A stretch of DNA of 64,000 bases from Candidatus Nomurabacteria bacterium (GCA_020847275.1 JADLCI010000007.1:108272-172271); one strand, 5' to 3'; counted from the stretch's first letter, positions 19,555 to 61,468 are shown. Program-made: numbers and translations. The notes: a model not told the origin generated them from the sequence alone.

Positions 19555-19593
19555 GATGGCTTTTTCTCGCTTTTTATAGTAAATTTGTGGGGC

Positions 19594-19668: not shown

Positions 19669-19680
19669 GTTTTTTGAAAA

Positions 19681-23758: not shown

Positions 23759-23832
23759 TACCGGTTCGTCTAATGGTAGGACAGCGGCCTTTGAAGCCGT
23801 TAATTGGGGTTCGAGTCCCTGACCGGTAGCCA
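23759..23832 (+). tRNA. tRNA-Gln (UUG)
   Basis: U1-A72 acceptor TACCGGT/ACCGGTA + G + encoded CCA. Anticodon stem GCGGC/GCCGT with loop CTTTGAA. Confidence 0.75.
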
Positions 23833-40228: not shown

Positions 40229-42922
40229 ATGTCTAATCCTTCATTGCGTCGAAGGGACGAGTTTATTTTGGGTGTTTTATTGGTATTTATTGTTGTATTT
40301 GGGTTTTATTATTTTTCTAATTCTTCGACGCCCGATGGATTATTTCCTAGTTTGCAACTGGCACAGATTAGTGGCCAGAAGGTTGAGGTTGTGGGACAAG
40401 AAACTATCCCGCCCACGACCCAGATTACTTCTCCTGGTGGTGGGGAAGTATTGTCTGGCCTGGTAACTGTCACCGCGACGGCCAGTGACAATGTGTCGGT
40501 GAACAGGGTCGAGCTTTGGAAGGATGAATCGCTCTTTAGAAGTACGGGTTCTCGTCCATACAACTTTATTTGGGACACAACTGCCTCTTCCAATTCTACC
40601 CATACACTACAAACAAGAGCCTATGACGCCGCCGGGAATGTTGGATTGTCGCCGACGGTGACGGTCAGCGTCTCTAATACTGGGACTCCGCCGCCAGCGG
40701 GGGATAATCCTGGCGGTAGCTCCAATTCTGATCCGAATAATCTCGCTAACGGTTCAAGTGTTCTCTTCGTTGATAAAAATAATTCTAATTGCAGTGACCA
40801 GCACTCTCGAAGTCAGGCACTTAACCCGCAGACACCGTGGTGTGGTCTCGCTGGCTTAACGGAAAATCACGGTTTAACCGTTCGCCCTGGCGACACGGTC
40901 TACTTTCGAGCGGGAGATTATACCGGACGCGAAGCGGGAATTATTTCTGACGGCACTCCGAGTGGTCGCATCACTATTAAGCCATATCCTGGCGATATGG
41001 TGATTTGGCGTGGCGGGTCTACTTCTTATGAAAGATTGTTTTCAGCAACAACAGACTATCTAACACTAGAAGGATTTACCATTGTTGGACATATTGATAC
41101 ATCGGAGGGCTCATTATACATGCCCGTGCTCCTATCTTTCTCTAATAACACTGGACTTGAACTGCGTAACCTAACCATAGAACCCTTCCAGTCTGTTAAC
41201 GATATCGGATTCGGTAATCGCTGGCCGAGTGATCATAGTAGGGAAGGTTGGGGACACGCGGTTAAATTATACAATTCTGATAACTTCAAGATTCAAAACA
41301 TAAAGATAACCTGTCAGGCCAGTACAGATGTTTACCCCGCCTTGAAATTCAACGGAGACGGACTCCAGCTTGATAACGTGAGAAATGGCGTGGTTGAGAA
41401 CAGTGAGTTTAAGGATTGTGCCCATATTCCACTGACTACAAGATTCAATTCCTATGGCGTAACGATTCAGAACAATGTCATCTCTAACGTTTTTCACACG
41501 GGCATGGCATCTGGTGTTGGCAGTCACAATAATATAATTCGCAACAATATTATAAAAAACTATAATTCTATTCCCAATGATCTATCCAACCGCTCTCACG
41601 GGATTGAACTATTGGGTGAGAATGACAGCTTAATCTACAACAATATTGTCTATAATGGAGCCAACAACGGCAATGGGATTTCTTTGGGAAATTCTCAAGA
41701 TTCCAATTTTTCACAGAACAATAACAATAAAATTTTTCATAACACTGTCTACTCTACCAATTACAACAATATCAGCTTGGGGAGCAATGGCCTGTTTGGT
41801 ACCAATAATTGGGTTAACAATAATCAGATAAAGAACAATATCACTTATGGCATCCAGCAGTATCAAAGTGAAGGACAATTCCTGCACGGGGAAATTCGAG
41901 TGTATGGTTATGACTATGAGGGTAACAACGGTTACGGCAATATTTTCCAAAATAATTTGGTGAAAGATTTCCGTCCCGAAGAAAAGCCAATCGTTAGTCG
42001 TAACTTTAGAAACAACACCTATAATCGTTACTCGGTTGCTGAATTCAATAGTTTGCCCTGGGCTTCGGGAAATATCGAAGGCGATCCCAAGTTTATTAAT
42101 CCCAGCGCGGGAGATTTTCACCTGCAAGCGACGAGTCCCGCTATCAATGCGGCACCTTGTTTGCCTGAGGTCACTGTTGATTTCGACGGCAGAAGTCGTA
42201 GTGCTGGTGGCGGTTGTACGATTGGCGCTTTCGAACTTGATCTGGTAAATCCGCCCCCGCCCCCGCCAGTTTTGGAAGAGGAACCGGTAGTTGAGGTTGA
42301 GCCACGGACCGAGGACGAGGAACCAGAATTAATCACCCCCGCTGCTTGTGGGGACGGTGTTCTCGATGCCGGAGAACAATGTGACGGTAATCTGATGGGT
42401 GGTTTAAGTTGTCGGTTGCTTGGTTTCTTGGGCGGCGGGAGTTTGCGCTGTTATTCGGGAAGTTCACCGCGGGCTTGTCGGCTTGATGTTGAGAAATGTT
42501 TACTCGCCCCCAATCAACCACCGCCAGTAAGGCAAGTCCCCGAGACAATCCCAGCCACAAAATCATCACCAGTGTCCGGTACAACCGAATCGCCAGAATT
42601 GTCCACCTGCCGAGAACGTTGGCTGTGTCGACAGGGCTGGAGTGAATGCGTGGATGGTAAGCAGACCCGTGAGTGCGTGGAACTGACCCAGTATGGCACC
42701 ACCTCTTGTCGGCCAAGGGTGGAACGAGCTTGTAATGAGAACGATCTAGCTTCGGATGTATTAGATACGAAGGCGATTGGTGAACAGGAAAAAGGGTCTT
42801 CTGTTGTTGCTAAATTGAATTTAACTCCTGTTCAGACCAAGGCCTTAGCGGTACTTGTTCCCACCTTCTTCGCAACACTAGCGATACTTGCAACGGTGAT
42901 TATTCGAACTTTTATGCTATAA
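40229..42922 (+). CDS. Large surface protein: N-terminal TM, Ig-like domain, right-handed parallel beta-helix (PbH1) repeats, Cys-rich module, C-terminal TM
   Basis: Asn-rich repeats (NNIIRNNIIKNYNS, NNNQIKNNITYG). CGDGVLDAGEQCDG cysteine-rich repeat motif. PPPPPP linker. Hydrophobic C-terminus. Confidence 0.6.
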   Translation: MSNPSLRRRDEFILGVLLVFIVVFGFYYFSNSSTPDGLFPSLQLAQISGQKVEVVGQETIPPTTQITSPGGGEVLSGLVTVTATASDNVSVNRVELWKDESLFRSTGSRPYNFIWDTTASSNSTHTLQTRAYDAAGNVGLSPTVTVSVSNTGTPPPAGDNPGGSSNSDPNNLANGSSVLFVDKNNSNCSDQHSRSQALNPQTPWCGLAGLTENHGLTVRPGDTVYFRAGDYTGREAGIISDGTPSGRITIKPYPGDMVIWRGGSTSYERLFSATTDYLTLEGFTIVGHIDTSEGSLYMPVLLSFSNNTGLELRNLTIEPFQSVNDIGFGNRWPSDHSREGWGHAVKLYNSDNFKIQNIKITCQASTDVYPALKFNGDGLQLDNVRNGVVENSEFKDCAHIPLTTRFNSYGVTIQNNVISNVFHTGMASGVGSHNNIIRNNIIKNYNSIPNDLSNRSHGIELLGENDSLIYNNIVYNGANNGNGISLGNSQDSNFSQNNNNKIFHNTVYSTNYNNISLGSNGLFGTNNWVNNNQIKNNITYGIQQYQSEGQFLHGEIRVYGYDYEGNNGYGNIFQNNLVKDFRPEEKPIVSRNFRNNTYNRYSVAEFNSLPWASGNIEGDPKFINPSAGDFHLQATSPAINAAPCLPEVTVDFDGRSRSAGGGCTIGAFELDLVNPPPPPPVLEEEPVVEVEPRTEDEEPELITPAACGDGVLDAGEQCDGNLMGGLSCRLLGFLGGGSLRCYSGSSPRACRLDVEKCLLAPNQPPPVRQVPETIPATKSSPVSGTTESPELSTCRERWLCRQGWSECVDGKQTRECVELTQYGTTSCRPRVERACNENDLASDVLDTKAIGEQEKGSSVVAKLNLTPVQTKALAVLVPTFFATLAILATVIIRTFML

Positions 42923-43523: not shown

Positions 43524-44417
43524 GTGGCAACTCTCTATACTCATCAAGCAAGTAATGTTCGGAAGACCTGGGCGCTGATGCTCGGCTTTTTCCTCTTTCT
43601 TATCGTGCTTGGGTGGGTTTTTTCTCAAGCTTATGATAATCCGCTGATTCTCTATGTTTTTGCGATGTTTTCTATTTCTCTAAACCTCGTAAGTTACTGG
43701 TATTCTGATAAGATTGCCCTTGCTCTGGCCCGCGCTCGGCCCGCCTCTCGCGAGGAATTCTTCGATCTCTTTACGGCGGTAGAGAATCTGGCGATTACTG
43801 CTGGACTGCCTCGACCGGCGATTTATGTGATTGATGACCCGGCGCCAAATGCTTTCGCTACCGGTAGGAATAAAGAGCATGCGGCCGTGGCAGTGACAAC
43901 GGGCCTGCTTCAGATGATGACCAAAGTAGAACTGGAGGGCGTGCTGGCCCACGAATTATCTCATATCGGCAACCGCGATATTCTTATCTCAACGGTCGTT
44001 GTGGTGCTTGTTGGACTTGTGGCCATGATCTCCGATATCTTCTTGCGCTCAATGTTTTGGGGTGGGAATCGTCGTCGTGGTGATGACGATAGGGGGTCAG
44101 GGGTGTTTCTGTTTTTAGGGATTATTGCGGCAATTATCTCGCCGATTGTGGCGACGCTTATCCAGCTCGCCGTTTCTCGCCGTCGAGAATTTCTTGCCGA
44201 TGCCTCTGGAGCGCTTCTCACCCGTTATCCTGAAGGCCTTGCTTCCGCTCTGGAAAAGATTGGGCATTATTCGTCACCGATGAAGAGGGTTAGCACGGCA
44301 ACCTCACATCTTTTCATTTCCTCTCCGCTTGGAGGTAAATCTGGTGGCCTATCAAAACTTTTTCTCACTCATCCATCGATTGAGGAAAGGGTCAAGATGT
44401 TGCGAGAAATGGCCTAA
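43524..44417 (+). CDS. htpX: Zinc metalloprotease HtpX (M48 family), GTG start
   Basis: HELSHIGNRD (HExxH). Four TM helices. Usual LemA-HtpX pairing. Confidence 0.8.
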   Translation: MATLYTHQASNVRKTWALMLGFFLFLIVLGWVFSQAYDNPLILYVFAMFSISLNLVSYWYSDKIALALARARPASREEFFDLFTAVENLAITAGLPRPAIYVIDDPAPNAFATGRNKEHAAVAVTTGLLQMMTKVELEGVLAHELSHIGNRDILISTVVVVLVGLVAMISDIFLRSMFWGGNRRRGDDDRGSGVFLFLGIIAAIISPIVATLIQLAVSRRREFLADASGALLTRYPEGLASALEKIGHYSSPMKRVSTATSHLFISSPLGGKSGGLSKLFLTHPSIEERVKMLREMA

Positions 44418-44437
44418 TTTCGTATCCTAGGGTAACG

Positions 44438-44522
44438 GGAGGGTTCGCATAGCGGTCTAGTGCGCACGCTTGGAAAGCGTGTGTGGGGCAACCCACCGAG
44501 AGTTCGAATCTCTCACCCTCCG
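44438..44522 (+). tRNA. tRNA-Ser (GGA), type II with a long variable arm
   Basis: Acceptor GGAGGGT/ACCCTCC + G. Anticodon stem CACGC/GCGTG with loop TTGGAAA. Long variable arm. T-arm GAGAG-TTCGAAT-CTCTC. Confidence 0.75.
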
Positions 44523-44649
44523 CCCACAGTATTTAGTATCGGCAGACGCGAGTGCCCGCAATATAGTTAGATACTTACCTGGGTTGACATTTGCGATACA
44601 AACTCTAGGATTAGCTCCGGCTGCACTTTTACAGAAAGGAGTGAAAATC

Positions 44650-45753
44650 ATGTCTAGGCCCGTGGTAGTAACATTGCCAATTACACCCCGCCATACTCCC
44701 GGACTCGGCCTGATGCTGATACCGCTGGTAATGGACATTATCAGACAGCAGATGGACGGCACCGGCGTGTTGGCCCTAAACGTCAATGGCTCAAAACTTG
44801 GAAGCGTTAATGTTGAGCCACACGTACTCGGATATCTCAAGGTCTGCCAGCAGGTTGGTATCGTACCGAACGTTGTTTGGCGCGACGATCAGCAGGAAAA
44901 CGTTTATTGGATCAACCAATTCTTCAAGCAACTTACCGACGCCGGACTAATCTTCCGGGCCAAAAGGGCAGTTAAGCGCTGTCCCTGCCGGATTGTAGAG
45001 ACTCTAGCCAATGCCGAGAATTTTTCGGATGCCAGAAAGTTGTATCACTGGACTGGCAATGTTTGCTTGTGCAAAATTTGCCAATTGCCAGTGTATGAGG
45101 AAAGTGATGATGTCTACCTTTTTAGGCTACCAAAGCCAAAGAAGGGGTTTGTCGTTACACCCGAATTTACTCAAGGGGAAATTGCAAATCTGGCCAGTAG
45201 ATTTACTGGAGCAGAGTTGCTGATCTCTCGAACACGTCAATCGGCCATACCTTTATGGGTTGGTCGGGAGCGAATTTTCCTTGACCCCGACTTTACCTGG
45301 CAGCTATATCTCCCGATTCTGTGGCATTGTGGTCATCGTCCAACGGTCATGATCGGTAGCCAGAAGAATCTCTTTGGTTGCTATTTGGCCATGCTTCTGT
45401 TGGAAATCTTGGTTGGTGATCAAGTAAACTTGGTCATACCAGCTTACTGCCAGACCAAAAGTCCGGCGGATGCCACAATCATGGGACGCTTCCTTGAGTG
45501 GAACAGATCAACTGTTCGTTTGTTTCTGGCCGCTCACGTGGCCTACCATGTCAAGGATACTCGTTTTGATGTTTCGCTCTTGCGGAATATCCAGAACCTT
45601 AGTCTCATCCTTGGTGGCCAAGTAGCTACGTCATCGGGAGCTCGATCGCTCGAACAAAGCCTGTCTCGGTCAAGCGCTCGGCAATTGCGTCAGCGTCTGC
45701 TCGAGGCTCGGCGATCAGGTGTAATTGATTCACTAATCTTGGAACTTTCGTAA
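44650..45753 (+). CDS. Degenerate class-I aminoacyl-tRNA-synthetase-like protein (MetRS-like catalytic core, 367 aa) lacking an intact HIGH/KMSKS and an anticodon-binding domain
   Basis: PITPRHTPGLGLMLIPLVMDIIRQQMDGTGV aligns to the aaRS P-x-x-x-G-x-x-H-x-G-H...D.I.RY..M.G region, with HLGH replaced by GLGL. CPC...CLCKIC Zn knuckle as in the MetRS CP domain. KMSKS position reads QTKSP. AAAGGAG SD before the ATG. GC-elevated. Confidence 0.5.
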   Translation: MSRPVVVTLPITPRHTPGLGLMLIPLVMDIIRQQMDGTGVLALNVNGSKLGSVNVEPHVLGYLKVCQQVGIVPNVVWRDDQQENVYWINQFFKQLTDAGLIFRAKRAVKRCPCRIVETLANAENFSDARKLYHWTGNVCLCKICQLPVYEESDDVYLFRLPKPKKGFVVTPEFTQGEIANLASRFTGAELLISRTRQSAIPLWVGRERIFLDPDFTWQLYLPILWHCGHRPTVMIGSQKNLFGCYLAMLLLEILVGDQVNLVIPAYCQTKSPADATIMGRFLEWNRSTVRLFLAAHVAYHVKDTRFDVSLLRNIQNLSLILGGQVATSSGARSLEQSLSRSSARQLRQRLLEARRSGVIDSLILELS

Positions 45754-45763
45754 GGAGCCAGTG

Positions 45764-46492
45764 ATGAAAGAATTGGAATGGTTAGTAAGTGGATGCGAAC
45801 GTGTCTTTGGAAACAACTTGCGTTGCATTCTTCTCTTGGGTTCGGTTCAGCACGGCGACACAACGCCGTTCTCCGACACCGATCTCGTTGTCGTAATTGG
45901 CAGCATGAGTCTGGCGGAGACGACACAGTTTCGGACGCTGGTCCGATCAGCCGAGATGTTGATTGATTGTTCCCTGGTTTGCCAAGATGAACTTCCGGTC
46001 AGTTCAGACCATTTTCATCTTGGTTCGCATGGTTGCTATCACCTAGAGTTGGTGCTTAAACACACCCGCTGTCTTTGGGGCAGAAATATCCTTCTGGACT
46101 TACCCAGTCCAACTGAAGAAGCCATACGGCATAGTGTGGCCGAGAAAATCTCTGAGTACACTTGGTGGGTTCGGCGAATGTTCGTTGAGTCGAATCGCCA
46201 GCGTTCGCTTGAGACAAACTACCAACTGAACAGCCGTCTGATCAAGGTGGTGCGAGATCTACTCTATCTGACAGACCACCACGGTCTCGACCAGTCCTTG
46301 GGGGAAACGATTGGGTTGTTTTTGAACAAGTATGGAGAACAGCTCAGTGAAGCAGAGCGGTTGGCCTTGCTTGGGCTAGCCGATTCTGGTCGCATTGCCA
46401 GCAATGTTGCCAACATGAGCGAGGGATATCTCGCAACACGATATTCACTGGTCAATTTTGTCTACAAACGAATGACCGAATTGGCCCTCTGA
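45764..46492 (+). CDS. Nucleotidyltransferase of the minimal Pol-beta fold (ANT/AadA-like architecture: N-terminal NTase plus C-terminal helical domain)
   Basis: GS-x10-DTD motif (LLLGSVQHGDTTPFSDTDLVVVI). AAGGAG SD overlaps the upstream stop, so the two genes form an operon. Confidence 0.6.
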   Translation: MKELEWLVSGCERVFGNNLRCILLLGSVQHGDTTPFSDTDLVVVIGSMSLAETTQFRTLVRSAEMLIDCSLVCQDELPVSSDHFHLGSHGCYHLELVLKHTRCLWGRNILLDLPSPTEEAIRHSVAEKISEYTWWVRRMFVESNRQRSLETNYQLNSRLIKVVRDLLYLTDHHGLDQSLGETIGLFLNKYGEQLSEAERLALLGLADSGRIASNVANMSEGYLATRYSLVNFVYKRMTELAL

Positions 46493-46496
46493 ATCA

Positions 46497-46530
46497 AGCC
46501 CGAGACTTGCGAGTCTCGGGCTTTTTCTTT
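46497..46530 (+). terminator. Strong Rho-independent terminator
   Basis: gcccgagact-tgcg-agtctcgggc perfect 10-bp stem, then TTTTTCTTT. Confidence 0.85.
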
Positions 46531-46542
46531 ATTCTTACTTAT

Positions 46543-47265
46543 ATGATTTACCGTGGCCGTCAAGGCGACATCGTATTTGAATTTTCTGTTTCCCCGGCTT
46601 CACGGGCGACAATTATTCTTTGTGACGGTCTACCTAGTGTACCTAAACAGCGTCAAGTGATGGATTTGTTGCAAGCTAAGGGCTACAATGTTTTTTTCCC
46701 ACGATATCGTGGAACTTGGGAAAGCGGCGGTAATTTTCTGGCCCAGTCTCCAGCCCTAGATATACTAGAGTTGGTCGCCCTGATTAAAAGCGGGTCGGTA
46801 ACGGAGCTGTATAGCAATCAAAAATTTAGTACCAATCCTAGGCTTTATTTGGTTGGAAGTAGTTGGGGAGCTACGGTGGCGTTGTCTTTGGCCGACAACC
46901 CTGATGTCGCCAGAGTTATTGCCTTTTCACCGATTGTTGACTTTGTTTCCCATCAACAGAACAGCCAAGGCCAAAATCTGCAGTGGCTTAAGCAGTTTAT
47001 TCGGCGAGCGTTCTATCAGGGATACCGCTTTGAGGATAAAGATTGGGAGCGAATGTTGTCTGGGGAATTATTTAAGCCATCGCTTAAATTGAAACCGGAA
47101 ACAACCACCATTGTTTATGACCGGTCTGACGAAGAAATTAGTTCTACCGACATAGAAACGTATTGCCAAATCGGCGGAGCCACGGCCGTTCAAGTTACTG
47201 GTATTGGCCATTTAAGTTTTTCTAAAATACCACCAGAACTTTGGGACCAAGTTCTGGTGGGTTGA
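46543..47265 (+). CDS. Alpha/beta hydrolase (esterase/lipase fold); start at MIYRG
   Basis: GxSxG nucleophile elbow (VGSSWGA). C-terminal His region (GIGHLSF). Confidence 0.6.
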   Translation: MIYRGRQGDIVFEFSVSPASRATIILCDGLPSVPKQRQVMDLLQAKGYNVFFPRYRGTWESGGNFLAQSPALDILELVALIKSGSVTELYSNQKFSTNPRLYLVGSSWGATVALSLADNPDVARVIAFSPIVDFVSHQQNSQGQNLQWLKQFIRRAFYQGYRFEDKDWERMLSGELFKPSLKLKPETTTIVYDRSDEEISSTDIETYCQIGGATAVQVTGIGHLSFSKIPPELWDQVLVG

Positions 47266-47282
47266 GAAGTTGGCTGTCGGCT

Positions 47283-48599
47283 TTATTCAATAGTCACCAC
47301 CTTTTTGGTTAACTTAATCCGCGATTTGAAGCAGCTCATAAGTTCTCGTTTCTCCTCGTTAGTGCCATCTTTGAGAATGTACTTGGCATAGGTTTTGAGA
47401 TCAATTTCCTCATGCTTGGCTTCGGGATCACGTACGCCCAGCACGCCAGACTGAAATCGGTTATGCCGTTTCAGCTCTTTCTCAAACTTTATCTGCACCC
47501 CAGTCTGATTCAGGTCGATCTGGTCAAGTGTTTTGGTTAACTGTTCGGTTAGCTCCTCCTCCCGCAAGTATGGATTCTTGCAACTTCGGTCTTTGGAGCG
47601 ACCGCAGCCATAGTAAATATACTTAGCCGTCGTGCCATCCTTGAGTAGCTTGTATTTCTCCTCGGCCGAAATGCCCGAGCCACACAGGCCACAAATCATG
47701 AGTTTGGTGAAGGCGAATTCGTGACTCTGGCGGACGATATTGTCCCGCTTTAACTGCTCCTGCGTCTTGTCGAATAGTTCTTTCGTGACTATCGGCTCAT
47801 GTTTGCCCCGATACCAGTTGCCGCTTCTTTTTGGATATTCAAAGGTGCCATAGTAAAAAGGGTTTTGGAGGATTCGAAATATATTACCAAGTGCTAAGTT
47901 GTGGTTACCGACTGTCTTGAAGTTGAGCTCAAATTTGAGCCAGTGGTGAATCTTCCGCCCGCTCCACTTCTCGTAGGCCATTTTCTCAAAGATTTTCTTG
48001 ATAATGGGAGCTCTCGTGGCATCCACTATTACCTGACACTTTTTATCCATCAGTTTCTGGTTCAGATAACCGGCGGGAGCCACTCCTGGCCATAACCCCA
48101 TCTCCACTCGCGTTCTCAAACCACGCTTCACATTGATGCCTCGATTGTCATTCTCCAACTTAGCCTGCGATCCCAGAATCATTAGCAAGAACTTCTCATT
48201 TGGATTGTTACTAAAACGCTGGCCAAAGGTACGGATTTCCATGAGTTTACCGGAGTCCATTAAGTCCACGATCTTGCCGAGGTCACCAGCGTTTCTTGAT
48301 ATCCGATCTGGCGCCCAGGTGAGAATGCCATTAAACTTACCCTCTTTTATCTCTTCAACAATTTCATTGAAGACTGGTCGCTGACCAGTCTCTTTGGCTG
48401 AGTGCGATTCTCGCTTCATGGTGACGACCTCCAGATTCTCTTTCTCGGCCAGCTGGAGCATCTCCTTGATTTGGCTATCAATGCTCAAGATTTGGCGTTC
48501 TTCGGACTCTGAACTTTTACGGGCATAAAGGCAGTATTTTACCCTTACAGGGATTGCTACTTTGGCCGCTACCCCTAACGGCGATATGGCTATGGTCAT
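47283..48599 (-). mobile_element. Large serine recombinase (resolvase domain + recombinase domain + Zn-ribbon), phage-integrase type
   Basis: Catalytic Ser context YARKSSESEERQILSIDSQ. Recombinase-domain and CxxC...CxxC zinc-ribbon segments. 438 aa. Confidence 0.8.
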
Positions 48600-48708
48600 A
48601 CCCTAAGGAATGACGCAACCGCCCGAAGGAGTCCAGAGCGTCCCGAGTAGGTAACCTGTTGGTAACTAAATTGCCCTTATTTTGCAACGCAAGCTAGGAT
48701 ATTGACCT

Positions 48709-50454
48709 ATGAAGACCTATGAACACTTGACTTGTTATTTACGTTCTGATAGGATGGCCCGTATCAGCATGCGCAAGGATATCCAAGCAAAACTTAAAGA
48801 AATGCCAGAGTTACTTTCCATCAGCCAGGTGGCAGAAATTTTCTCTATCCACCAGGACACCCTCCGCAACTGGGAGAAAGAAGGCATCCTGGTACCGCTC
48901 CGAGCTGGTAAGCGCGGGGACCGCAAATACCGCCCGCAAGACATCCAGACAATTGTCGACAAGATGGGTAGCAAGCTCACCCTCCCGCAACTCGAGCAGT
49001 TTCTCTGGAAGAGCGCCGACATCCTTCGGGGCAAAATCGACAGCTCTGACTACAAAAAATATATCTTCGGCCTCCTCTTTTACAAACGTATCAGCGACGT
49101 CTGGGACGAGGAATACGCGAAGGTGATGGATGAGTTCAAAGACGAGACGATTGCTCGTGCCGATTATAATCACCGCTTTCAGGTGCCGAAGGAGTGTCGC
49201 TGGTCGGTCGTGGAGGAGCGGGCAGAAAATATCGGCAAGAAGCTCAACGAGATTTTTGAGAAGCTTGCCAACGCGAACAGCCCGAAGCTCGACAGGATTT
49301 TTGAGGACCTCGATTTCGCCAACAAGGATCGTTTCCCGAATGAGACGACCCAGCGACTCATCAACCACTTTTCCCAATACAATTTTGGCGACACTTATAT
49401 AAACTCTGACCTCTTGGGCGACGCATACGAGTATCTCATCAAACAGTTCGCGGCGGACGCCGGCAAAAAAGGCGGCGAGTTCTACACCCCGCGCGAAGTC
49501 GAGCGTGTCATCATCGAGATCCTCAAACCCCACAAGAAAGACCACATCTACGATCCAACTGTCGGCTCTGGCGGCTTCCTTCTCGAGGCTTTCCATTACC
49601 TCAAAGAAAAAGAGAACGAGCAGGTGGCACGCACTCTCTATCTCTACGGTCAGGAAATAAACATCGGCACCTTTGCAATCGCTAAAATCAACATGTTCCT
49701 CCACGGTCTTGATAGCGCCGATATCCAGCGTGGGGATACGTTAGCCAATCCGCAGTTCCTTAATCCGAACGGCTCTCTCAAAACATTCGACATCTGCGTA
49801 GCCAATCCGCCCTACTCAATCAACGACTGGGAATACGAGATGTTCAAATCCGACAAATACGGTCGGATAGACGGGTACGAACTACCGCCAAATAAAAATG
49901 CGGACTACGCCTTCGTCCTCCACATTATAAAGTCCATGAACTCAAATGGTCGCGCGGGCATCGTACTCCCGCACGGTGTGCTCTTCCGTGGCGGTTCCGA
50001 GGGGCGCATCCGCGAACAGATACTCAAGAACGACCTTATAGAAGCCGTCATCGCGCTCCCGCCGAAGCTCTTTTATGGCACGGGCATCCCTGCGGCCATC
50101 CTCATTTTCAACAAGAACAAGCCGAAGGAACGTCAGGGCAGAGTGCTTATTATTGATGCCGAAAAGGATTTTTCCGAAGGCAAGAACCAAAACTCACTCC
50201 GCTTTCAAGACATACAGAAAATTGTTAAGGCCCACGCTGGGTACAAGGATGTAGAAGGATACGCTCGCGTCGTCGGCTTCAAAGAGATTGAGGAGAACGA
50301 ATTCAACCTCAACGTGCGGCGCTACATCGAGAACGGCGACAAGGAGGAAGAGGTAGATGTGTCAGTGGTCCGAAAGGAGCTCGCCGTTCTCGAGAAGGAA
50401 CGTGAGGAGATAGGTAAAAGGGTTGAAAAGTATTTAACAGAGTTGAAGTATTAA
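48709..50454 (+). CDS. hsdM: Type I R-M methyltransferase subunit HsdM with an N-terminal MerR/excisionase-type HTH extension
   Basis: Motif I DPTVGSGGFL and motif IV NPPY (VANPPYSINDW). The canonical HsdM N-terminus (LEQFLWKSADILRGKID) begins at about residue 85. Residues ~20-80 form the HTH (LLSISQVAEIFSIHQDTLRNWEKEGILVPLR). Confidence 0.85.
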   Translation: MKTYEHLTCYLRSDRMARISMRKDIQAKLKEMPELLSISQVAEIFSIHQDTLRNWEKEGILVPLRAGKRGDRKYRPQDIQTIVDKMGSKLTLPQLEQFLWKSADILRGKIDSSDYKKYIFGLLFYKRISDVWDEEYAKVMDEFKDETIARADYNHRFQVPKECRWSVVEERAENIGKKLNEIFEKLANANSPKLDRIFEDLDFANKDRFPNETTQRLINHFSQYNFGDTYINSDLLGDAYEYLIKQFAADAGKKGGEFYTPREVERVIIEILKPHKKDHIYDPTVGSGGFLLEAFHYLKEKENEQVARTLYLYGQEINIGTFAIAKINMFLHGLDSADIQRGDTLANPQFLNPNGSLKTFDICVANPPYSINDWEYEMFKSDKYGRIDGYELPPNKNADYAFVLHIIKSMNSNGRAGIVLPHGVLFRGGSEGRIREQILKNDLIEAVIALPPKLFYGTGIPAAILIFNKNKPKERQGRVLIIDAEKDFSEGKNQNSLRFQDIQKIVKAHAGYKDVEGYARVVGFKEIEENEFNLNVRRYIENGDKEEEVDVSVVRKELAVLEKEREEIGKRVEKYLTELKY

Positions 50455-50457
50455 CAT

Positions 50458-51264
50458 ATGACAAACATGGACATACAACAAGAAAAAGAGGAGAAGTTCG
50501 TCGACAAACACGATTTTTACTTTGAGGCACCTTTGTATGAAGCTATCGAAGTGAGCAGGTTGGAGGGTGACATATTCAGTGGTGATGTGGATGCGTACAA
50601 CACCGCAAGTGGTTTTGACACCACTTATGAAATAAAAACGGGTCATATCGGGTATCACGATAACGACTTCCGAGGTTTTTATACAGTTGTCCTAACCTGC
50701 AAAAGAAAGGGTGAAGATAAGTTGCGTTTTTTTGTTTACAGAAGTAAAGAGTTAGTTATTAAACTCGGTCAATTTCCGTCTTTGGCAGACATACAGTTCG
50801 CTGAAATCGGAAAGAAATACGACAGCGTGTTGCCGAAAGAAGATTTAAAAAATCTCAAGAAAGCTATCGGCCTCGTTGCGCACGGCGCGGGTGCCGGGTC
50901 ATTCGTATATCTTCGGCGGATTTTCGAGAATCTTATACTCGCAACATTCAAACAGAACATGGCTGCTGTCGGTGTCTCCGAAGCGGACTTCAAGACCAAT
51001 CGTATGGAAGATAAAGTGGAGGCGCTGAGGACGTTTTTGCCTAGCCAGCTCCTTGAGATGAAATCTATCTACGGAATTCTGAGCAAGGGCGTGCACGAAT
51101 TGAGCGAAGAAGAGTGCCTCAAGTACTTCTCCCCGTTGAAGCTCTCAATTGAACTCGTCCTCGATCAAAAGATAGAAGAGGCGACAAAGCGCGGACGGGA
51201 CGCGCTTGTTAAAAAGCAGCTACAGAATATTCATCAAGAGCTTTCTAACGGTGAGACTAAATAA
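50458..51264 (+). CDS. Hypothetical 268-aa protein inserted between hsdM and hsdS (possibly DUF4145-like helical domain)
   Basis: No catalytic motif recognised. C-terminal helical region AIGLVAHGAGAGSFVYLRRIFENLI. Gaps of 3 nt or less to both neighbours. Confidence 0.4.
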   Translation: MTNMDIQQEKEEKFVDKHDFYFEAPLYEAIEVSRLEGDIFSGDVDAYNTASGFDTTYEIKTGHIGYHDNDFRGFYTVVLTCKRKGEDKLRFFVYRSKELVIKLGQFPSLADIQFAEIGKKYDSVLPKEDLKNLKKAIGLVAHGAGAGSFVYLRRIFENLILATFKQNMAAVGVSEADFKTNRMEDKVEALRTFLPSQLLEMKSIYGILSKGVHELSEEECLKYFSPLKLSIELVLDQKIEEATKRGRDALVKKQLQNIHQELSNGETK

Positions 51265-51266
51265 GT

Positions 51267-52373
51267 ATGGCTACTGCGCCCCAAAAAAATATTCCCAACG
51301 GTTGGCAACAAGCAAGACTCGGGGATATTTCTGATATCACAAATGGAAAGACCAATACGCAGGATGCTGTTACTCACGGGGAATATCCTCTCTTCGATCG
51401 CTCGGTCGCAATAAAGAGGAGTAATAAATATCTTTTTGACGACACCGCCGTCATCCTCCCGGGTGAGGGAGCAGAGTTTGTGCCCCGCTACTACAGTGGC
51501 AAGTTCGATCTGCATCAGAGAGTGTATGCTATTTTCCCGAACGAGACGGTTTATCCTCTATTTTTATATCAATATTTGTACGCAAATCGTGCAGTCTTCG
51601 CACAAAATGCAGTCGGGAGTACGGTGAAGTCTCTCCGCCTCCCAATTATTCAAGCGGTCGATGTTTTACTGCCCACTCTTCCCGAACAAATGAAGATCGC
51701 GGAAATTTTATCCGCGGTCGATGCAGAAATTCAAAAGACAGACGAAATAATCACCTCTACAGAGAAACTCAAGCACGGGCTTATGAAGCAGTTTCTCTCG
51801 GCCAATAAAAGTTCTACAAAGAAGAGGTTCTCAGAATTGGCGAGTCTCAGAAAAGAAGCCTTCGATCCGAAGACAGAAGCGTCTGAAAAGTATGTTGGGT
51901 TAGAACATATTGATCAAAACTCAGGAGCATTGCTCGGATTTGGTGACTCCATTGAAACGGCAAGCATAAAAACAAGATTTTATGCCGGTGACATTTTGTT
52001 TGGGAAGTTGCGCCCCTATCTACGGAAATACTGGAAAGCAAACTTTAGTGGAGTTTGTACTACGGAGATACTCGTCTTCCAGCCTAAAGAAAAGAGAGAC
52101 GCCGAGTTTATTTTTTACCTTACTCAGTCGGATCAGTTTATAAATCATTCAAACTCGAAATCGTTTGGTACCAAAATGCCTCGAACAGATTGGAATATCG
52201 TTTCCGAGTTTGAGTTTTTCGCTCCCTCTCCAATAAAGAGACAGGAAATTGGGACCTTGCTGACTCTTATCGATCAAAGAACCTCAATCAACCGAAAAAT
52301 GAGAGGACGGTTAGTTCTCCTTAAGAAAGGTCTTATGCACGATCTTTTGAGCGGTAAGAAAAAAACAATATGA
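51267..52373 (+). CDS. hsdS: Type I R-M specificity subunit HsdS
   Basis: Two target-recognition domains separated by a conserved central helix (LPTLPEQMKIAEILSAVDAEI). C-terminal conserved helix. Confidence 0.8.
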   Translation: MATAPQKNIPNGWQQARLGDISDITNGKTNTQDAVTHGEYPLFDRSVAIKRSNKYLFDDTAVILPGEGAEFVPRYYSGKFDLHQRVYAIFPNETVYPLFLYQYLYANRAVFAQNAVGSTVKSLRLPIIQAVDVLLPTLPEQMKIAEILSAVDAEIQKTDEIITSTEKLKHGLMKQFLSANKSSTKKRFSELASLRKEAFDPKTEASEKYVGLEHIDQNSGALLGFGDSIETASIKTRFYAGDILFGKLRPYLRKYWKANFSGVCTTEILVFQPKEKRDAEFIFYLTQSDQFINHSNSKSFGTKMPRTDWNIVSEFEFFAPSPIKRQEIGTLLTLIDQRTSINRKMRGRLVLLKKGLMHDLLSGKKKTI

Positions 52374-53653
52374 CCACTGAAACGCTAAAGAATAAGACAA
52401 GGACGAAGGAGATATATCATGCGGCTAATACCGACCCCGTTTTCGATGTTAAGTCTCGTGAGGTAATGAGAGGGAAACTTTACGAGATCGTTTTTCCTTT
52501 CAATCGCCAGGGTAAGCAGAAGTACTCACTCATCTCGGAAATTCACTTCGATGGGGTGAGCCGTCTCGATCTCAAGGGTATGAGGGGTATGACGCGCGGC
52601 TATGGCTTCACGCAGGACACCGTCCCCATTGTATCGACTTTGAACGAAACTTTCCCCGGTGTCACAAAGATAATAATTTCTACTAAAACAACATCGATAA
52701 ACCTACGGAAGAGCGAGCTCGTGTTGAATGTCGACGACTATAAGACTATTTATTCCACAATCCGTCCTAAAAATCAGAAGCACTCTAAGGATCAGAAGGT
52801 TACGATCCATAATATTTTGGCACAAACAGGTGGACTAGGTCTTAAGGCAAAGAAAATTCCTTACGTTGCAGGCACAATTAAGGGAATTTTGAGAGAAGTT
52901 TCTTCCTCGGGCGGGAAGTTATCAGATGTCGACTCCGGCGCGCTACTTGATTTTGCGCAGAACAAGATTGAAAACTATGACGTCGACGCCGCTACGCTAA
53001 TCCATACGAAGGAAAAAATAGACAAGGTCTATTTTGAGAAAGTCATCGCGCGGTTTGAGAAACTGCTTGCCCTCAAAAAAGGGGTCGGCGCAAAGAAGCT
53101 GGAACAACGGTGGCACAATTTCTTCAAAGATAACTCTTGGATCTTCTCGTACTTGTTTGCCGCGCCCCATTTTCTTTTCCAGGATGAGTATTATGTTGGT
53201 GGGCAAAAAGGCACGGGCAAAGAAGCGCGATATGCCGATTTCATTTATAAAAATAAGCTGACGGGCAGCGCAACCATAATCGAAATTAAAACTCACAGAA
53301 CGAAAACGCTTCACAACACAGCCTACCGCTCTGCCGGGAAGGTATACCCGATTTCTTCAGATATCACGGGAGCAATAAATCAGGTCCTAGATCAAAAGAA
53401 TACCCTCCTCAAGAATTACTCGACCGTAGCGCAAGGCGATTTTGAGATCTTTGATCCGCGCTGCGTCATCGTTGTTGGCAACACCAAAGATATTCCGAAG
53501 GAGAGGGTAAAGAATTTCGATATGTTCCGATCGAATTTGAGGAATATAGAAATTATTTGCTTTGATGAACTTCTAGAAAAAGCGAAGCTGCTTTTGAGCC
53601 ATTTCATTAAGCCAAAGGGCTCCAAGAAGAAGAAAAATAAGAAGATAAAGTGA
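52370..53653 (+). CDS. Shedu/DUF4263-like PD-(D/E)xK nuclease with an unknown N-terminal domain, embedded between hsdS and hsdR
   Basis: C-terminal YADFIYKNKLTGSATIIEIKTHR (D...ExK), then AINQVLDQ, CVIVVGNTKD and terminal IEIICFDELLEKA, matching the DUF4263 layout. ATGA overlap with hsdS and a 1-nt gap to hsdR. Confidence 0.5.
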   Translation: MTTETLKNKTRTKEIYHAANTDPVFDVKSREVMRGKLYEIVFPFNRQGKQKYSLISEIHFDGVSRLDLKGMRGMTRGYGFTQDTVPIVSTLNETFPGVTKIIISTKTTSINLRKSELVLNVDDYKTIYSTIRPKNQKHSKDQKVTIHNILAQTGGLGLKAKKIPYVAGTIKGILREVSSSGGKLSDVDSGALLDFAQNKIENYDVDAATLIHTKEKIDKVYFEKVIARFEKLLALKKGVGAKKLEQRWHNFFKDNSWIFSYLFAAPHFLFQDEYYVGGQKGTGKEARYADFIYKNKLTGSATIIEIKTHRTKTLHNTAYRSAGKVYPISSDITGAINQVLDQKNTLLKNYSTVAQGDFEIFDPRCVIVVGNTKDIPKERVKNFDMFRSNLRNIEIICFDELLEKAKLLLSHFIKPKGSKKKKNKKIK

Positions 53654-53654
53654 T

Positions 53655-56561: not shown

Positions 56562-56563
56562 CC

Positions 56564-57133
56564 ATGAAAAGAGAAATCGCTCTTCAAAATAAAAAGGTCA
56601 CCTACACTCTCCGGAAGAGCAAGCGAGCTCGAAGAATGCGTCTCGCCGTGTATTGTGACGGTACAATAGTTGTTACTACGCCGTTTGATCTCAAAGAGAC
56701 GGTTGCGGAGAGGTTTATCCGAGAGAAAAGCCAATGGCTTTTCTCAAAGATAGCGTTTTTCGAGCAATTCAAGGGTCTTGCAATTACTCGTTACTCACAC
56801 GAGGACTATCTTAAAAATAAAGACCGCGCTTATGAGCTTGCGATTGAGCGAGTGCAGTATTTCAACAAAAAGCATAAGTTCATTTTTAACAAGATCAATA
56901 TAAAGAATCAGAAGACTCGCTGGGGCAGTTGCTCTAAAAAAGGAAACCTAAATTTTAACTATAAAATTGTGCTGCTTCCGCAACGGCTTGCCGACTACAT
57001 CATCGTTCACGAACTATGCCACCTCAAGGAATTTAATCATTCCAAGAAGTTTTGGAATCTAGTCGAGAAAGTAATTCCTGATTATACAAGGATTAGAGAT
57101 GATCTGAAGAGAAGTGGCGTCACTTTTTACTAA
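56564..57133 (+). CDS. YgjP-like / DUF45 M48-family metallopeptidase, often linked to type I R-M
   Basis: HExxH (IIVHELCHLKE) in the WGSCSKKGNLNFNYKIVLLPQ context. Confidence 0.7.
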   Translation: MKREIALQNKKVTYTLRKSKRARRMRLAVYCDGTIVVTTPFDLKETVAERFIREKSQWLFSKIAFFEQFKGLAITRYSHEDYLKNKDRAYELAIERVQYFNKKHKFIFNKINIKNQKTRWGSCSKKGNLNFNYKIVLLPQRLADYIIVHELCHLKEFNHSKKFWNLVEKVIPDYTRIRDDLKRSGVTFY

Positions 57134-57134
57134 C

Positions 57135-57665
57135 ATGATTCATAAAATCAGAAATTTTATCCAAAGTTTAGAGAAGAGGCAGATTATCGCTTATATCGTC
57201 TTTTTGCTACTCGCCACAATCGTGTTCGTTGGAATGACCTTCTTTAAGGAGACGTTTCAAAAGATTGGATACACGTTACTTCTCATTGAACTCATTCTTC
57301 TAGTGACCGTTGCTTGGGCATTGGCCGGGCATGCGGTAATGAAATCACTCTTTGTTGTCGGCGCTAGTTTATCGCTGATCATTTTTCTCTCGCAAGCATA
57401 CTGCGGAGCCCCCAATCTTTCTCAGGCAGGTAACGATGCGCTCAAGACACTTATTGCTTTTGGTTTTATATACATCGCCACAAATTTTCTCCGAGCACTA
57501 TACAAAGAAGTCACTGATAGGACCAAGGTCCTGAGGCAAGTAAATGGCGGGAAGAGCCCGTGGTTCTTTCTTGTGCCATTTGCGTTGTTTGTCGGCTTGT
57601 TTGTATGGCAGATCGTTCAGATCATTATGCCAATTTTACAAAACCTCTGTATTTACCAAATTTGA
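57135..57665 (+). CDS. Hypothetical polytopic membrane protein
   Basis: Four or five TM helices. Starts 1 nt after the ygjP-like stop. Confidence 0.4.
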   Translation: MIHKIRNFIQSLEKRQIIAYIVFLLLATIVFVGMTFFKETFQKIGYTLLLIELILLVTVAWALAGHAVMKSLFVVGASLSLIIFLSQAYCGAPNLSQAGNDALKTLIAFGFIYIATNFLRALYKEVTDRTKVLRQVNGGKSPWFFLVPFALFVGLFVWQIVQIIMPILQNLCIYQI

Positions 57666-57769
57666 ACCTGTTGGTAACTAACGCTTCGCAATATCTCCTG
57701 ATTAAGCTAGGATGCTTCACGATAGCCAAATGTGCTATCATGCTCCTGACAATTGAATAAGCAAAAGTA

Positions 57770-61086: not shown

Positions 61087-61468
61087 TTTTTTCTAGGTTA
61101 ATTCTGGCTAGGGCCAACGCTCGGCGAATCAATTCTTTTTGTGGTGAGGACAGTTCCTCGATTACCTCCAGTTTACCGGCCAATTCGAGGCGCGTGCGGT
61201 AGCTGGGATGGTGGTTCTTTAGCCACATATTCACCGCCCGCAGGTCACGATTCTTGATTGCCGCAATCAACTGGCCCTCGGCCATATCGTTCATCAGCAA
61301 CACGCCATCAGTCATGGCCCGATCGACCTCAGCAGAAAATTCAGGATCATCTTTTTTCCACTGATAGAAGCTGGTCCGTCCGACCCCAGTTTGTTTACAG
61401 GCAATCTCCACGATTGGTGTCTTGCGTAATTGTTCAAGCACGGCACTTTTTAGTTTATGCCTTTTCAT
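61076..61468 (-). CDS. HTH protein, terminase small subunit-like
   Basis: N-terminal HTH (PIVEIACKQTGVGRTSFYQWKK). Overlaps the large terminase gene by 11 nt. Confidence 0.5.
   Translation of the reverse strand: MKRHKLKSAVLEQLRKTPIVEIACKQTGVGRTSFYQWKKDDPEFSAEVDRAMTDGVLLMNDMAEGQLIAAIKNRDLRAVNMWLKNHHPSYRTRLELAGKLEVIEELSSPQKELIRRALALARINLEKNGS

Follow-up and report, generated by a model that had tools for sequence, protein, structure and literature searches.

An undescribed gene module pairing a MetRS-derived pseudo-synthetase with a Pol-beta nucleotidyltransferase, with a possible role in aminoacyl-nucleoside chemistry

In a window of 64,000 nucleotides from Candidatus Nomurabacteria (the whole stretch of DNA that was analysed), we found the core of an undescribed and widely scattered module, in which a pseudo-synthetase derived from methionyl-tRNA synthetase (MetRS) is accompanied by a nucleotidyltransferase (NTase) and usually by a serine hydrolase. 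From the combined analysis, the module appears most likely to make or disarm a compound that joins an amino acid to a nucleoside. We assign a probability of roughly 0.4 to the reading that the module handles compounds of the aminoacyl-nucleoside or aminoacyl-nucleotide type without using ATP; it is probably neither a tRNA toxin nor an aminoglycoside resistance gene.

All features of the locus lie on the plus strand. Gene 1 (44650..45753; 367 aa), a MetRS-derived class Ia aminoacyl-tRNA synthetase (aaRS) catalytic-domain protein, has an AAAGGAG Shine–Dalgarno sequence upstream of its ATG at 44650. Gene 2 (45764..46492; 242 aa, with an alternative GTG start at 45761) encodes a Pol-beta/MNT nucleotidyltransferase with a HEPN-like helical domain. 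The translational coupling of the two genes that an earlier note on this DNA had proposed was confirmed: the TAA stop of gene 1 (45751-45753) overlaps the GGAG of the gene 2 Shine–Dalgarno sequence. The same note described a two-gene cassette closed by a terminator, which leaves out a conserved serine hydrolase gene, gene 3 (46543..47265; 240 aa, alpha/beta fold), downstream of the hairpin. An intrinsic-terminator-like hairpin with a T-run is present between genes 2 and 3 (46496..46533; 12-bp stem and 4-nt loop, placed at 46496-46523), but it is a conserved internal feature and not the end of the unit. A hairpin with a U-tract occupies the equivalent place in 6/7 loci, with folding energies of -14.7 to -22.7 kcal/mol, and its position, not its sequence, is kept among relatives. 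Gene 3 starts at the ATG at 46543; the TTG at 46507 listed by the ORF finder was rejected as its start, as it falls within the terminator.

The product of gene 1 agrees in every residue with the hypothetical protein IT398_02165 that NCBI lists for a Candidatus Nomurabacteria MAG. It has no match among Pfam, NCBIfam and PADLOC models, including every aaRS model of Pfam and NCBIfam, and its family, which comprises about 300 clusters at 50% identity, is covered by none of these three collections. Searches of PDB sequences with the single gene 1 sequence and with a 9-sequence profile gave nothing meaningful; among these searches, MetRS was reached only with a 132-sequence family profile, which matched the A. 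aeolicus enzyme (E 0.0022). Comparison with true MetRS by hhalign gave a probability of 94% (E 1.4e-7), so the degenerate MetRS-like character of gene 1 stands. Like MetRS (tRNA-synt_1g), gene 1 retains the class Ia Rossmann catalytic fold with its CP insertion, as well as collinear remnants of the ISR/IDR, W-x-D-A-type, GKD-type and D-x-x-R-Y-Y-L-type segments. The cysteines of its knuckle, a predicted metal site that hhalign places in register with the MetRS knuckle, are conserved at ≥ 90% in 132 diverse relatives (C111, C113, C141 and C144), in line with the zinc knuckle noticed previously.

Unlike MetRS, gene 1 has no HIGH histidines, no KMSKS and no recognisable anticodon-binding domain. 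The assignment of GLGL to the HIGH position was upheld, since hhalign sets PGLGL of gene 1 against LHIGH of MetRS, and in the 132 relatives the two histidine columns are occupied by K/S/N and L/F/M; the histidines are gone family-wide. For KMSKS, the proposed counterpart QTKSP is in the right place by topology and by a low-confidence extended alignment only, in a shortened loop, and [KR]MS occurs at this position in just 1/132 relatives. As had been suspected, an anticodon-binding domain was not detected (no Anticodon_1 or Anticodon_3 match), and the protein ends with about 95 poorly modelled helical residues past the KMSKS-position loop. The predicted structure is moderately confident (pLDDT 69), and the mapping of active-site residues is of low confidence apart from HIGH and the knuckle. 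Class I enzymes need the HIGH histidines and the KMSKS lysines for aminoacyl-adenylate formation, and we infer from the sequence that gene 1 is unable to activate amino acids with ATP. The gene 1 family also differs from MetRS in its basic pI and its Pol-beta NTase partner (30/31 loci). The cupin-MetRS-like hydrazine synthetases (PyrN; the MetRS paralogue of Aravind 2010), which are ATP-dependent and linked or fused to cupin and lysine N-oxygenase, likewise differ from this family, which is without the HIGH histidines and KMSKS and has other partners.

Gene 2 has the expected MNT/AadA architecture, a two-domain NTase plus helical fold with the hG[GS]...DxD motif, and by its sequence appears to be a catalytically intact Pol-beta nucleotidyltransferase. 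Its best fold matches are to ANT(3'')(9), over about 205-210 residues, and it shares with AadA/ANT(3'')(9) and ANT(9) the MNT and helical (HEPN-like) domains and the GS...DxD motif. In the helical domain, where acidic or aromatic residues serve aminoglycoside binding in AadA/ANT enzymes, the charged residues that gene 2 and its relatives conserve number 9 K/R and 2 E at the sequence level. The Rx4-6H motif of HEPN proteins is absent from this domain, where the conserved stretch reads RRMFVESNR. In PADLOC-DB 2.0, gene 2 matches only the generic MNT model of the candidate system PDC-S09 (E 1.9e-6), and genes 1 and 3 match no defence model.

The third gene most probably encodes a catalytically intact serine hydrolase, aminopeptidase- or esterase-like, given that its triad (Ser in GSSWG, Asp, and His in GHLSFS) is invariant among orthologues. 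These orthologues begin with MIYRG or MIFRG, and gene 3 itself has weak matches to Abhydrolase_6, Hydrolase_4 and Peptidase_S15. Orthologues (E 1e-60 to 1e-89) directly follow gene 2 in 6 further loci with unrelated flanks, which brings the loci with a gene-3-type hydrolase downstream to 7, this one included; most close relatives have the hydrolase in this position. Elsewhere, the place is taken by the PF06821 Ser_hydrolase type (L049, L011/L012 and L046), and most loci of SF-A, the one distant subfamily whose neighbourhoods were sampled, carry a Peptidase_S51 gene. The hydrolase of the module thus appears to be exchanged among three unrelated types, S51 peptidases included; the S51 enzyme MccG splits processed McC at its aminoacyl-nucleotide bond (PMC9239234).

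The pairing of genes 1 and 2 recurs, as the earlier note had anticipated it might: across the superfamily the pseudo-synthetase lies beside a Pol-beta NTase in 30/31 distinct loci. Within the close family, each of the 10 distinct loci (10/10) has gene 1 immediately ahead of gene 2. In the distant subfamily (≤ ~25% identity to gene 1) a Pol-beta NTase is adjacent in 18/18 distinct loci, with the order of the two genes reversed and the NTase from another subfamily. Full-length gene-2 homologues occur in L043 and L046 (E 7e-26), and at least 3 proteins (P0064, P0069 and P0150) are pseudo-synthetase/NTase fusions, P0064 joining full-length versions of genes 1 and 2. P0143 and P0140 also carry extensions at their C-termini, but on comparison these proved not to be gene-2-like. 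A functional coupling of genes 1 and 2 is supported by these sequence data. The family is scattered across CPR bacteria, gut and rumen bacteria and high-GC lineages. That the pair is undescribed held up as well: searches turned up neither a family model nor a publication on a system of an aaRS-like protein with a nucleotidyltransferase, and the Aravind 2010, HEPN 2013 and release-factor 2019 papers make no mention of one.

Further partners are found in the wider family, where fusions join the aaRS-like protein to a PRTase or a HAD protein (aaRS-like::PRTase, aaRS-like::HAD) and the NTase to a sulfotransferase or a GNAT (sulfotransferase::NTase, GNAT(Acetyltransf_3)::NTase). Neighbours of distant modules include CysD with CysN::APS-kinase, NUDIX genes on both sides, a PfkB kinase and radical SAM. 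These associations seem to point to small-molecule aminoacyl-nucleoside chemistry, and not to toxin–antitoxin activity or aminoglycoside modification. It counts against this reading that the informative accessory genes sit in distant subfamilies, at about 20-25% identity to gene 1; we carry it over to the minimal CPR trio because of the shared module architecture. In addition, true MetRS, IleRS and TyrRS genes lie near the module in five SF-A loci, a truncated Rel gene is directly upstream of it in 3 SF-A loci, and pheS (the PheRS alpha-subunit gene) is two genes away in L049. The enrichment of aaRS and Rel neighbours, drawn from partly related loci, is only suggestive.

In the reading that we favour, the former aminoacyl-adenylate/A76 pocket of gene 1 would hold a ligand of the aminoacyl-nucleoside or -nucleotide type, and gene 1 would be a probable ATP-independent aminoacyl transferase whose amino acid is drawn from aminoacyl-tRNA. 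A link to tRNA may exist in this other form, with aminoacyl-tRNA as donor substrate; the sole indirect hint is the basic pI of gene 1 (9.3, family median 8.7-8.8, versus 5.7-5.8 for genes 2 and 3), which fits binding of a polyanion such as tRNA. The NTase would perform nucleotidyl transfer on the same small molecule, either building a nucleotide-bearing acceptor or O-nucleotidylating it, and its role is only vaguely defined here. The hydrolase would strip the aminoacyl group, like AcmE for ascamycin and MccG for processed microcin C, resulting in unmasking or self-protection. Precedents for the transferase step are AcmF (truncated, AlaRS-like), SbzA (IleRS-like) and the cyclodipeptide synthases, and an aaRS-derived fold minus the activation machinery is what gene 1 shares with this functional class (PMC12945691; PMC2922099).

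The acm cluster of ascamycin encodes AcmF (370 aa), a truncated, ATP-motif-less aaRS-like transferase, together with the alpha/beta hydrolase AcmE and an extra aaRS, AcmD (PMC12945691), as well as a sulfate adenylyltransferase, an APS kinase, a sulfotransferase, a radical SAM protein, a phosphatase and an adenine PRTase (PMC12945691; PMC4257720). Our module resembles it in having a truncated aaRS-like protein (~370 aa) without ATP-activation residues and a co-encoded hydrolase, and the acm accessory set is linked to distant family members. As AcmF is a class II (AlaRS-like) protein, the comparison is one of functional analogy, not homology. SbzA, the class Ia precedent, differs in being full-length and in keeping HYGH/AMSKA (PMC12945691), and neither AcmF nor SbzA has an obligate Pol-beta NTase partner. 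A second parallel is microcin C immunity, with the enzymes MccG (S51), MccF (a serine peptidase) and MccE/RimL (GNAT). At the family level, two of these types recur among partners in the wider family, as S51 peptidases and as GNATs of the Acetyltransf_3 (RimL-type) kind, and both families have been shown to detoxify aminoacyl-nucleotides (PMC9239234). Gene 3, in contrast, is an alpha/beta hydrolase, neither S51 nor S66, and the module lacks both MccB and a precursor peptide of mcc type.

Because the Nomurabacteria module consists of just three genes and lacks an exporter, we lean slightly towards protection against the compound, or its turnover, over its production. That neither a transporter nor a regulator nor a gene for precursor supply belongs to the cassette counts against the reading as a whole. 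In a bolder version, which we consider less likely, the complex of an ATP-less class Ia fossil with an NTase would build or reversibly mask a new class of aminoacyl-nucleotides from aminoacyl-tRNA, as Trojan-horse aaRS inhibitors or as an alarmone-like signal of translation status, and the hydrolase would be the off-switch or immunity factor.

The results define a sizeable protein family so far without a model, and a new branch of aaRS evolution, in which a MetRS core without both signature motifs is under strong purifying selection. With its NTase partner and a hydrolase that has repeatedly been replaced by non-homologous types, the module forms a system of three components that is open to testing. 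Should the AcmF-like reading hold, aminoacyl-tRNA-dependent, ATP-independent aminoacyl transfer would extend to class Ia scaffolds, and the family would mark loci for the production or inactivation of aaRS inhibitors of the aminoacyl-nucleotide type, both in gut anaerobes and in uncultured CPR bacteria, with relevance to antibiotic discovery and resistance. Should a tRNA-directed reading hold instead, the module would represent a novel system of surveillance or toxicity at tRNA ends.

Such a system, unlikely in our view yet deserving of weight, would act on the tRNA 3' end in repair, quality control or toxicity: the pseudo-MetRS would dock the acceptor end, the NTase would add nucleotides, for which CCA-adding enzymes and MenT are models, and the hydrolase would deacylate aminoacyl-tRNA. 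It includes the toxin/antitoxin or abortive-infection version put forward in the earlier note, with the NTase as the toxin. The aaRS-derived fold with its CP knuckle, the basic pI of gene 1, the mostly Arg/Lys conserved residues of the gene 2 helical domain and the translation-related SF-A neighbours (Rel, TyrRS, MetRS, IleRS) are all consistent with it. Decayed copies of the module, present in some loci, are expected of conflict genes. Within the window, its neighbours are a serine recombinase, a block of type I R-M and Shedu genes, and phage genes, surroundings that would suit a defence function equally well.

Resemblance to MenT/AbiEii and HepT/MntA extends to a Pol-beta-superfamily NTase in a tightly coupled pair and to the MNT and HEPN-like folds. 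However, membership of gene 2 in MenT/AbiEii was not borne out: it has no PF08843 match and no DUF1814 signature, and its best folds are small-molecule ANTs. In contrast to HepT/MntA, its HEPN-like domain is fused to the NTase and lacks Rx4-6H. A 367-aa aaRS-like partner and a conserved third enzyme set the module apart from toxin–antitoxin systems, for which three enzyme-sized genes and stable toxin/antitoxin fusions are atypical. The PADLOC results (gene 1 unmatched, gene 2 with its generic model only) also argue against a tRNA 3'-end system, as does the dearth of mobile relatives with the queries tried: viral contigs scanned with two subfamily alignments, plasmids searched by tblastn with P0143 and phages with P0069 gave no matches. 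The PRTase, HAD, sulfotransferase and GNAT fusions and the PAPS pathway are hard to reconcile with it.

Further points against such a system are that the tRNA gene beside the module is not a conserved part of it and that its close-family loci mostly have other surroundings. A tRNA-Ser(GGA) gene is indeed located upstream of gene 1 (44438..44524), at a measured 125 nt and not the 128 nt reported before, but none of 10 related loci scanned has an adjacent tRNA gene (0/10), and most close-family loci are surrounded by housekeeping genes. A tRNA gene is found elsewhere in the locus in 4/10, about 2.6-3.6 kb upstream where the module is complete (3 loci). A downstream search for direct repeats of the 3' end of tRNA-Ser (seed 12, ≥ 16 nt) found none, and therefore there is no evidence that the module lies within a tRNA-integrated island.

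If the favoured reading is narrowed to production, the module would be dedicated to the biosynthesis of an aminoacyl-nucleotide or -nucleoside antibiotic or signal, and the hydrolase would confer self-immunity; we consider this doubtful. Distant loci offer an ascamycin-like set (PAPS synthesis and sulfotransferase, PRTase, HAD, radical SAM and GT2), and the true aaRS genes near some of them could be resistant copies; minimal mcc operons likewise have three genes only (PMC9239234). Against this, the CPR trio has no exporter, precursor genes or extra aaRS, CPR genomes are metabolically minimal, and the biosynthetic-looking operons are single examples (L034 and L038).

A protein-modifying pair is improbable. 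Here the NTase would AMPylate or nucleotidylate the pseudo-synthetase or a host aaRS (compare MntA acting on HepT, and GlnE and DrrA acting on their own targets), and the hydrolase would reverse or process the modification. The tight coupling and the fusions of genes 1 and 2 agree with this, but the HEPN Rx4-6H motif is missing, the small-molecule accessory enzymes are left unexplained, and we know of no esterase- or aminopeptidase-type serine hydrolase that acts as a de-AMPylase.

Very improbable is a resistance gene for aminoglycosides (or another cationic antibiotic) with two unrelated or accessory neighbours: despite weak HMM matches of gene 2 to ANT(4')-Ib and AadA and the APH and GNAT genes near some distant modules, gene 2 is not the bona fide AadA/ANT enzyme that had been considered, as it scores 12-23 bits against cut-offs of 193-595 in the curated NCBIfam ANT models, is 13-14% identical, matches in the generic NTase core only, has basic conserved residues in a substrate-side helical domain that would be the opposite of a polycationic drug pocket, and its pairing and fusion with a pseudo-synthetase would go unexplained.

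The Rfam scan of 44300-47400 returned the tRNA as its sole match, with no leader, riboswitch or T-box. A promoter-like TTGACA-16-TAGGAT (44584..44611; 10/12 matches in a consensus scan) between tRNA-Ser and gene 1 is a candidate only, such sites being no more numerous in the region than in shuffled sequence. The GC elevation reported for the cassette is marginal (0.497 versus a window mean of 0.467, sd 0.022; 91st percentile) and was rejected as a sign of foreign origin, since values are equally high in the neighbouring htpX (0.499) and hsdM (0.506).

In the window, gene 1, which encodes a MetRS-like pseudo-synthetase of 367 aa, runs from ATG 44650, with AAAGGAG ahead of the start, to TAA 45753. 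It lies downstream of tRNA-Ser(GGA) (44438-44524, by ARAGORN and Rfam) and of a promoter-like TTGACA-16-TAGGAT element (44584-44611). The TAA overlaps the GGAG preceding gene 2, a Pol-beta nucleotidyltransferase (NTase) gene that extends to 46492 from either GTG 45761 or ATG 45764, followed by a hairpin with a 12-bp stem and a T-run (46496-46523). The products of genes 1 and 2 are identical to the "hypothetical" Candidatus Nomurabacteria MAG entries IT398_02165 and IT398_02170, which places the window in the CPR (Patescibacteria). An earlier note had described the two genes as a cassette beside tRNA-Ser (44650-46530), and this observation is confirmed and extended here; its coordinates and motifs were right except for small details, as gene 1 lies 125 nt from the tRNA gene instead of 128 nt and gene 2 is annotated with 242 aa instead of 243 aa. 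The GC elevation claimed for the cassette is present but marginal (0.497 vs 0.467 +/- 0.022), and the neighbours htpX and hsdM are no lower.

The cassette is part of a three-gene unit. Context look-ups from either gene returned an invariant order of gene 1 (~365 aa), gene 2 (~245 aa), and a serine hydrolase (gene 3, ~248 aa) within unrelated flanks. By HMM scans of every fetched locus, gene 1 is directly 5' of gene 2 in 10/10 distinct close-family loci (the window, L001, L003, L006, L009, L013, L015, L016, L047, and L049). An orthologue of the window hydrolase follows directly in seven of the ten (E 1e-60 to 1e-89), with an invariant catalytic triad; the hydrolase of L049 is of another type (199 aa, PF06821), none was found in L047, and L016 is truncated by the end of its contig. 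Orthologue starts place the real hydrolase start in the window at ATG 46543 and rule out a TTG inside the terminator. The hairpin and U-tract, which the earlier note took as the end of the unit, keep their position between genes 2 and 3 in 6/7 loci and are therefore an internal feature of the module. Adjacency to a tRNA gene is not conserved among the related loci. The close family is rare, with five loci in 185,579 species-representative genomes (Paceibacterota, "Saccharibacteria", and a "Nanoarchaeota" MAG).

The spacer hairpin (window 46496-46545; L003, L006, L009, L013, and L015) is kept in position, not in sequence, and the hydrolase ATG lies ~10-25 nt further on, with a TATACT/TATAAT-like box ~10 nt 5' of it in several loci; this arrangement could reflect read-through control or a leaderless transcript. 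In a related protein found on seven contigs, P0049 (408 aa; L011 4211-5437, L012 6001-7227), the N-terminal ~250 residues of a gene-1 homologue run in frame into the helical C-terminal half of a homologue of gene 2; neither the NTase core nor the final part of the aaRS-like domain is present. A PF06821 hydrolase gene comes directly after it. P0049 looks like a deletion derivative persisting in a lineage.

Structural and profile evidence agree that the gene 1 product is a catalytic domain derived from MetRS that lacks the signature motifs of catalysis. The protein had no match in Pfam, NCBIfam, or PADLOC, nor in PDB as a single-sequence query, while the top 39 Foldseek matches of its model were all MetRS (E 3.5e-13, TM 0.55-0.66). 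A profile of 132 diverse relatives matched A. aeolicus MetRS (E 0.0022), and hhalign against genuine MetRS gave a probability of 94% (E 1.4e-7), with PGLGL opposite LHIGH and the Cys knuckle in register. A relaxed alignment is collinear across the entire catalytic core, the KMSKS-side half being of low confidence, and pairs ISR with IDR, IFLDPDFTWQ with IYVWIEAVLGY, VMIGS..QKN with YVHGKDN, and TVRLFL with TIRFYF; in the low-confidence half, the KMSKS loop is shortened to QTKSP. Across the family, K/S/N and L/F/M occupy the columns of the two HIGH histidines, and [KR]MS is present in just 1/132 members. At a mean column identity of 22%, P10, N44, D79, four cysteines, P171, S193, D212, D214, and W217 are near-invariant. 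The protein is thus conserved and presumably functional, and given established class I enzymology it is very unlikely to form an aminoacyl-adenylate. No anticodon-binding domain was detected, and the final ~95 residues are poorly modelled helices.

Gene 2 encodes an intact nucleotidyltransferase with an AadA fold, and it is not an AadA. G26, S27, D38, D40, D68, and E76 show no variation across 38 homologues, and the model is confident (pLDDT 89.5). Its sequence matches are limited to the NTase core, and NCBIfam ANT models score it at 12-23 bits against cut-offs of 193-595. It also lacks a HEPN Rx4-6H motif.

The partnership extends well beyond the close family. An exhaustive profile search for the gene 1 family yielded 300 clusters at E<1e-3, 229 of these at E<1e-10. 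In three members (P0064, P0069, and P0150) the aaRS-like domain and a Pol-beta NTase form a single protein, the NTase portion of P0064 being a full-length gene-2 orthologue (99.9%); elsewhere the domain is fused to a PRTase (P0131, L042) or a Cof-type HAD phosphatase (P0191, L038). P0173 (879 aa) carries a ~500-residue C-terminal extension without a Pfam match. Scanning metagenomes with a single distant subfamily, SF-A (~20-25% identity to gene 1), gave 28 loci, and an NTase gene adjoins the aaRS-like gene in 18/18 distinct analysable ones. The SF-A NTase lies upstream, belongs to a different Pol-beta subfamily, and has only the core in common with gene 2; most SF-A loci also hold a Peptidase_S51 (S51) gene, often with a small radical-SAM gene between. 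The window gene order recurs in L043 and L046, each of which has a full-length gene-2 homologue; the hydrolase gene after it is of the alpha/beta type in L043 and PF06821-like in L046. Overall, the NTase adjoins the aaRS-like gene in 30/31 distinct loci, the sole exception being the PRTase fusion of L042 on a short contig. In most cases the pair comes with a serine hydrolase, for which three unrelated types are used; that non-homologous enzymes replace one another in this way strongly indicates a requirement for the hydrolytic activity itself. Truncated accessory genes in SF-A, namely 93-aa radical-SAM fragments (L028, L029) and 84- and 120-aa S51 fragments (L032), indicate ongoing decay of parts of the module.

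The accessory genes encode enzymes that modify nucleosides, nucleotides, and small molecules rather than ones typical of RNA repair or of classical toxin-antitoxin systems. An apparent operon in L034 (33-7065) encodes CysD, CysN::APS-kinase, TauE/SafE, sulfotransferase::NTase (704 aa), S51, and the aaRS-like protein, so that a full PAPS pathway supplies a sulfotransferase which is itself fused to the partner NTase. The same-strand row of L038, also an apparent operon, reads SIS, NT5C-like, amidohydrolase, aaRS-like::HAD, NTase, RimL-type GNAT, GT2, and PRTase. The NTase of L035 is fused to a RimL-type GNAT, a NUDIX gene flanks the module on either side in L036, GNAT and APH are added in L024, and a PfkB kinase lies upstream in L046. 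True MetRS genes occur near SF-A modules in L020 and L035 (after the module in the latter), IleRS in L030, and TyrRS downstream in L019 and L028, while pheS, for the PheRS alpha subunit, is two genes from the pair in L049. A truncated Rel gene, whose 479-495-aa product has HD, RelA_SpoT, and TGS without the C-terminal regulatory domains, is directly upstream of the NTase gene in L020, L024, and L028. In L018, a 225-aa protein with a weak ADPrib_exo_Tox (ADP-ribosyltransferase exoenzyme) match is encoded (8064-8738) just 3' of the S51 gene of an SF-A module.

The ascamycin (acm) system closely parallels the module in logic and accessory repertoire. AcmF moves alanine from Ala-tRNA to a nucleoside sulfamate, the alpha/beta hydrolase AcmE takes it off again, and AcmD is an extra AlaRS for donor supply and self-resistance; the IleRS-like SbzA likewise uses Ile-tRNA (PMC12945691). 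The acm cluster also encodes a sulfate adenylyltransferase, APS kinase, sulfotransferase, radical-SAM protein, phosphatase, and adenine PRTase (PMC4257720). However, AcmF is class II whereas gene 1 is class Ia, so that the likeness is an analogy only. Cyclodipeptide synthases, also derived from class I enzymes, lost HIGH when they changed to aminoacyl-tRNA substrates (PMC2922099). The module seems to fit a known pattern, in which an aaRS-derived protein that no longer activates amino acids acts together with a hydrolase that removes the aminoacyl group; its class Ia origin and its obligate Pol-beta NTase partner, found in no known system, are its distinctive additions. Literature and family-database searches found no paper or family model describing it.

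It is established that gene 1 keeps the fold but has lost the motifs, that it is obligately partnered with or fused to the NTase, that NTase and hydrolase both have intact active sites, and that the hydrolase is replaced between loci. Beyond these points, we favour, at a probability of roughly 40%, a mechanism in which gene 1 handles an aminoacyl-nucleoside or -nucleotide type ligand without ATP. The ligand would be held in the old adenylate pocket, probably for aminoacyl transfer from an aminoacyl-tRNA donor; the selectively basic pI of gene 1 (9.3, vs 5.7-5.8 for genes 2 and 3) fits a tRNA partner. Nucleotidyl transfer by the NTase would target this molecule too, and the hydrolase would remove the aminoacyl group again. 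The CPR trio may either make such a compound or protect against one.

The pairing and novelty claimed in the earlier note hold, while its two specific readings, tRNA toxin/defence and aminoglycoside resistance, fit poorly. A repair or toxin system directed at tRNA 3' ends is the strongest alternative, though an unlikely one: basic surfaces, translation-related neighbours, and the mobile and defence surroundings of the window module speak for it, but gene 2 has no DUF1814/AbiEii signal and is not placed with MenT/AbiEii, the queries tried found no relatives in phage, plasmid, or viral collections, and the fusions involve small-molecule enzymes. A purely biosynthetic role, one half of what the favoured mechanism would allow, is likewise unlikely, and nucleotidylation of a protein by the NTase is highly improbable. 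Classical aminoglycoside resistance is the least probable. The conserved charged residues of the gene 2 helical domain, nine Arg/Lys vs two Glu, would argue against a polycationic aminoglycoside substrate.

Next to the module lies a minus-strand gene for a serine recombinase (47283-48599), and beyond it a type I R-M operon (48709-57665) encoding HsdM, an unknown 268-aa protein, HsdS, HsdR, and a YgjP-like protein, with a 427-aa gene for a Shedu SduA_C nuclease domain between hsdS and hsdR (52370-53653). A perfect 17-nt direct repeat, AACCTGTTGGTAACTAA (48653-48669 and 57665-57681), flanks a 9-kb block that contains the R-M genes, its left copy lying between the recombinase gene and hsdM, and the copies may mark both termini of an inserted defence cassette. 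Downstream, genes for a terminase large subunit (490 aa) and a ParB_N::N6_N4 DNA methylase (454 aa) on the minus strand (59614-62819) suggest a prophage or phage remnant. Upstream of lemA-htpX, an 897-aa predicted surface or secreted protein (40229-42922) has an N-terminal membrane anchor, repeats rich in Asn, a proline-rich linker, and a C-terminal region rich in Cys. The window also contains a tRNA cluster (Met, Met, Asp, Thr, Thr; 18862-19756) and a separate tRNA-Gln (23759-23832).
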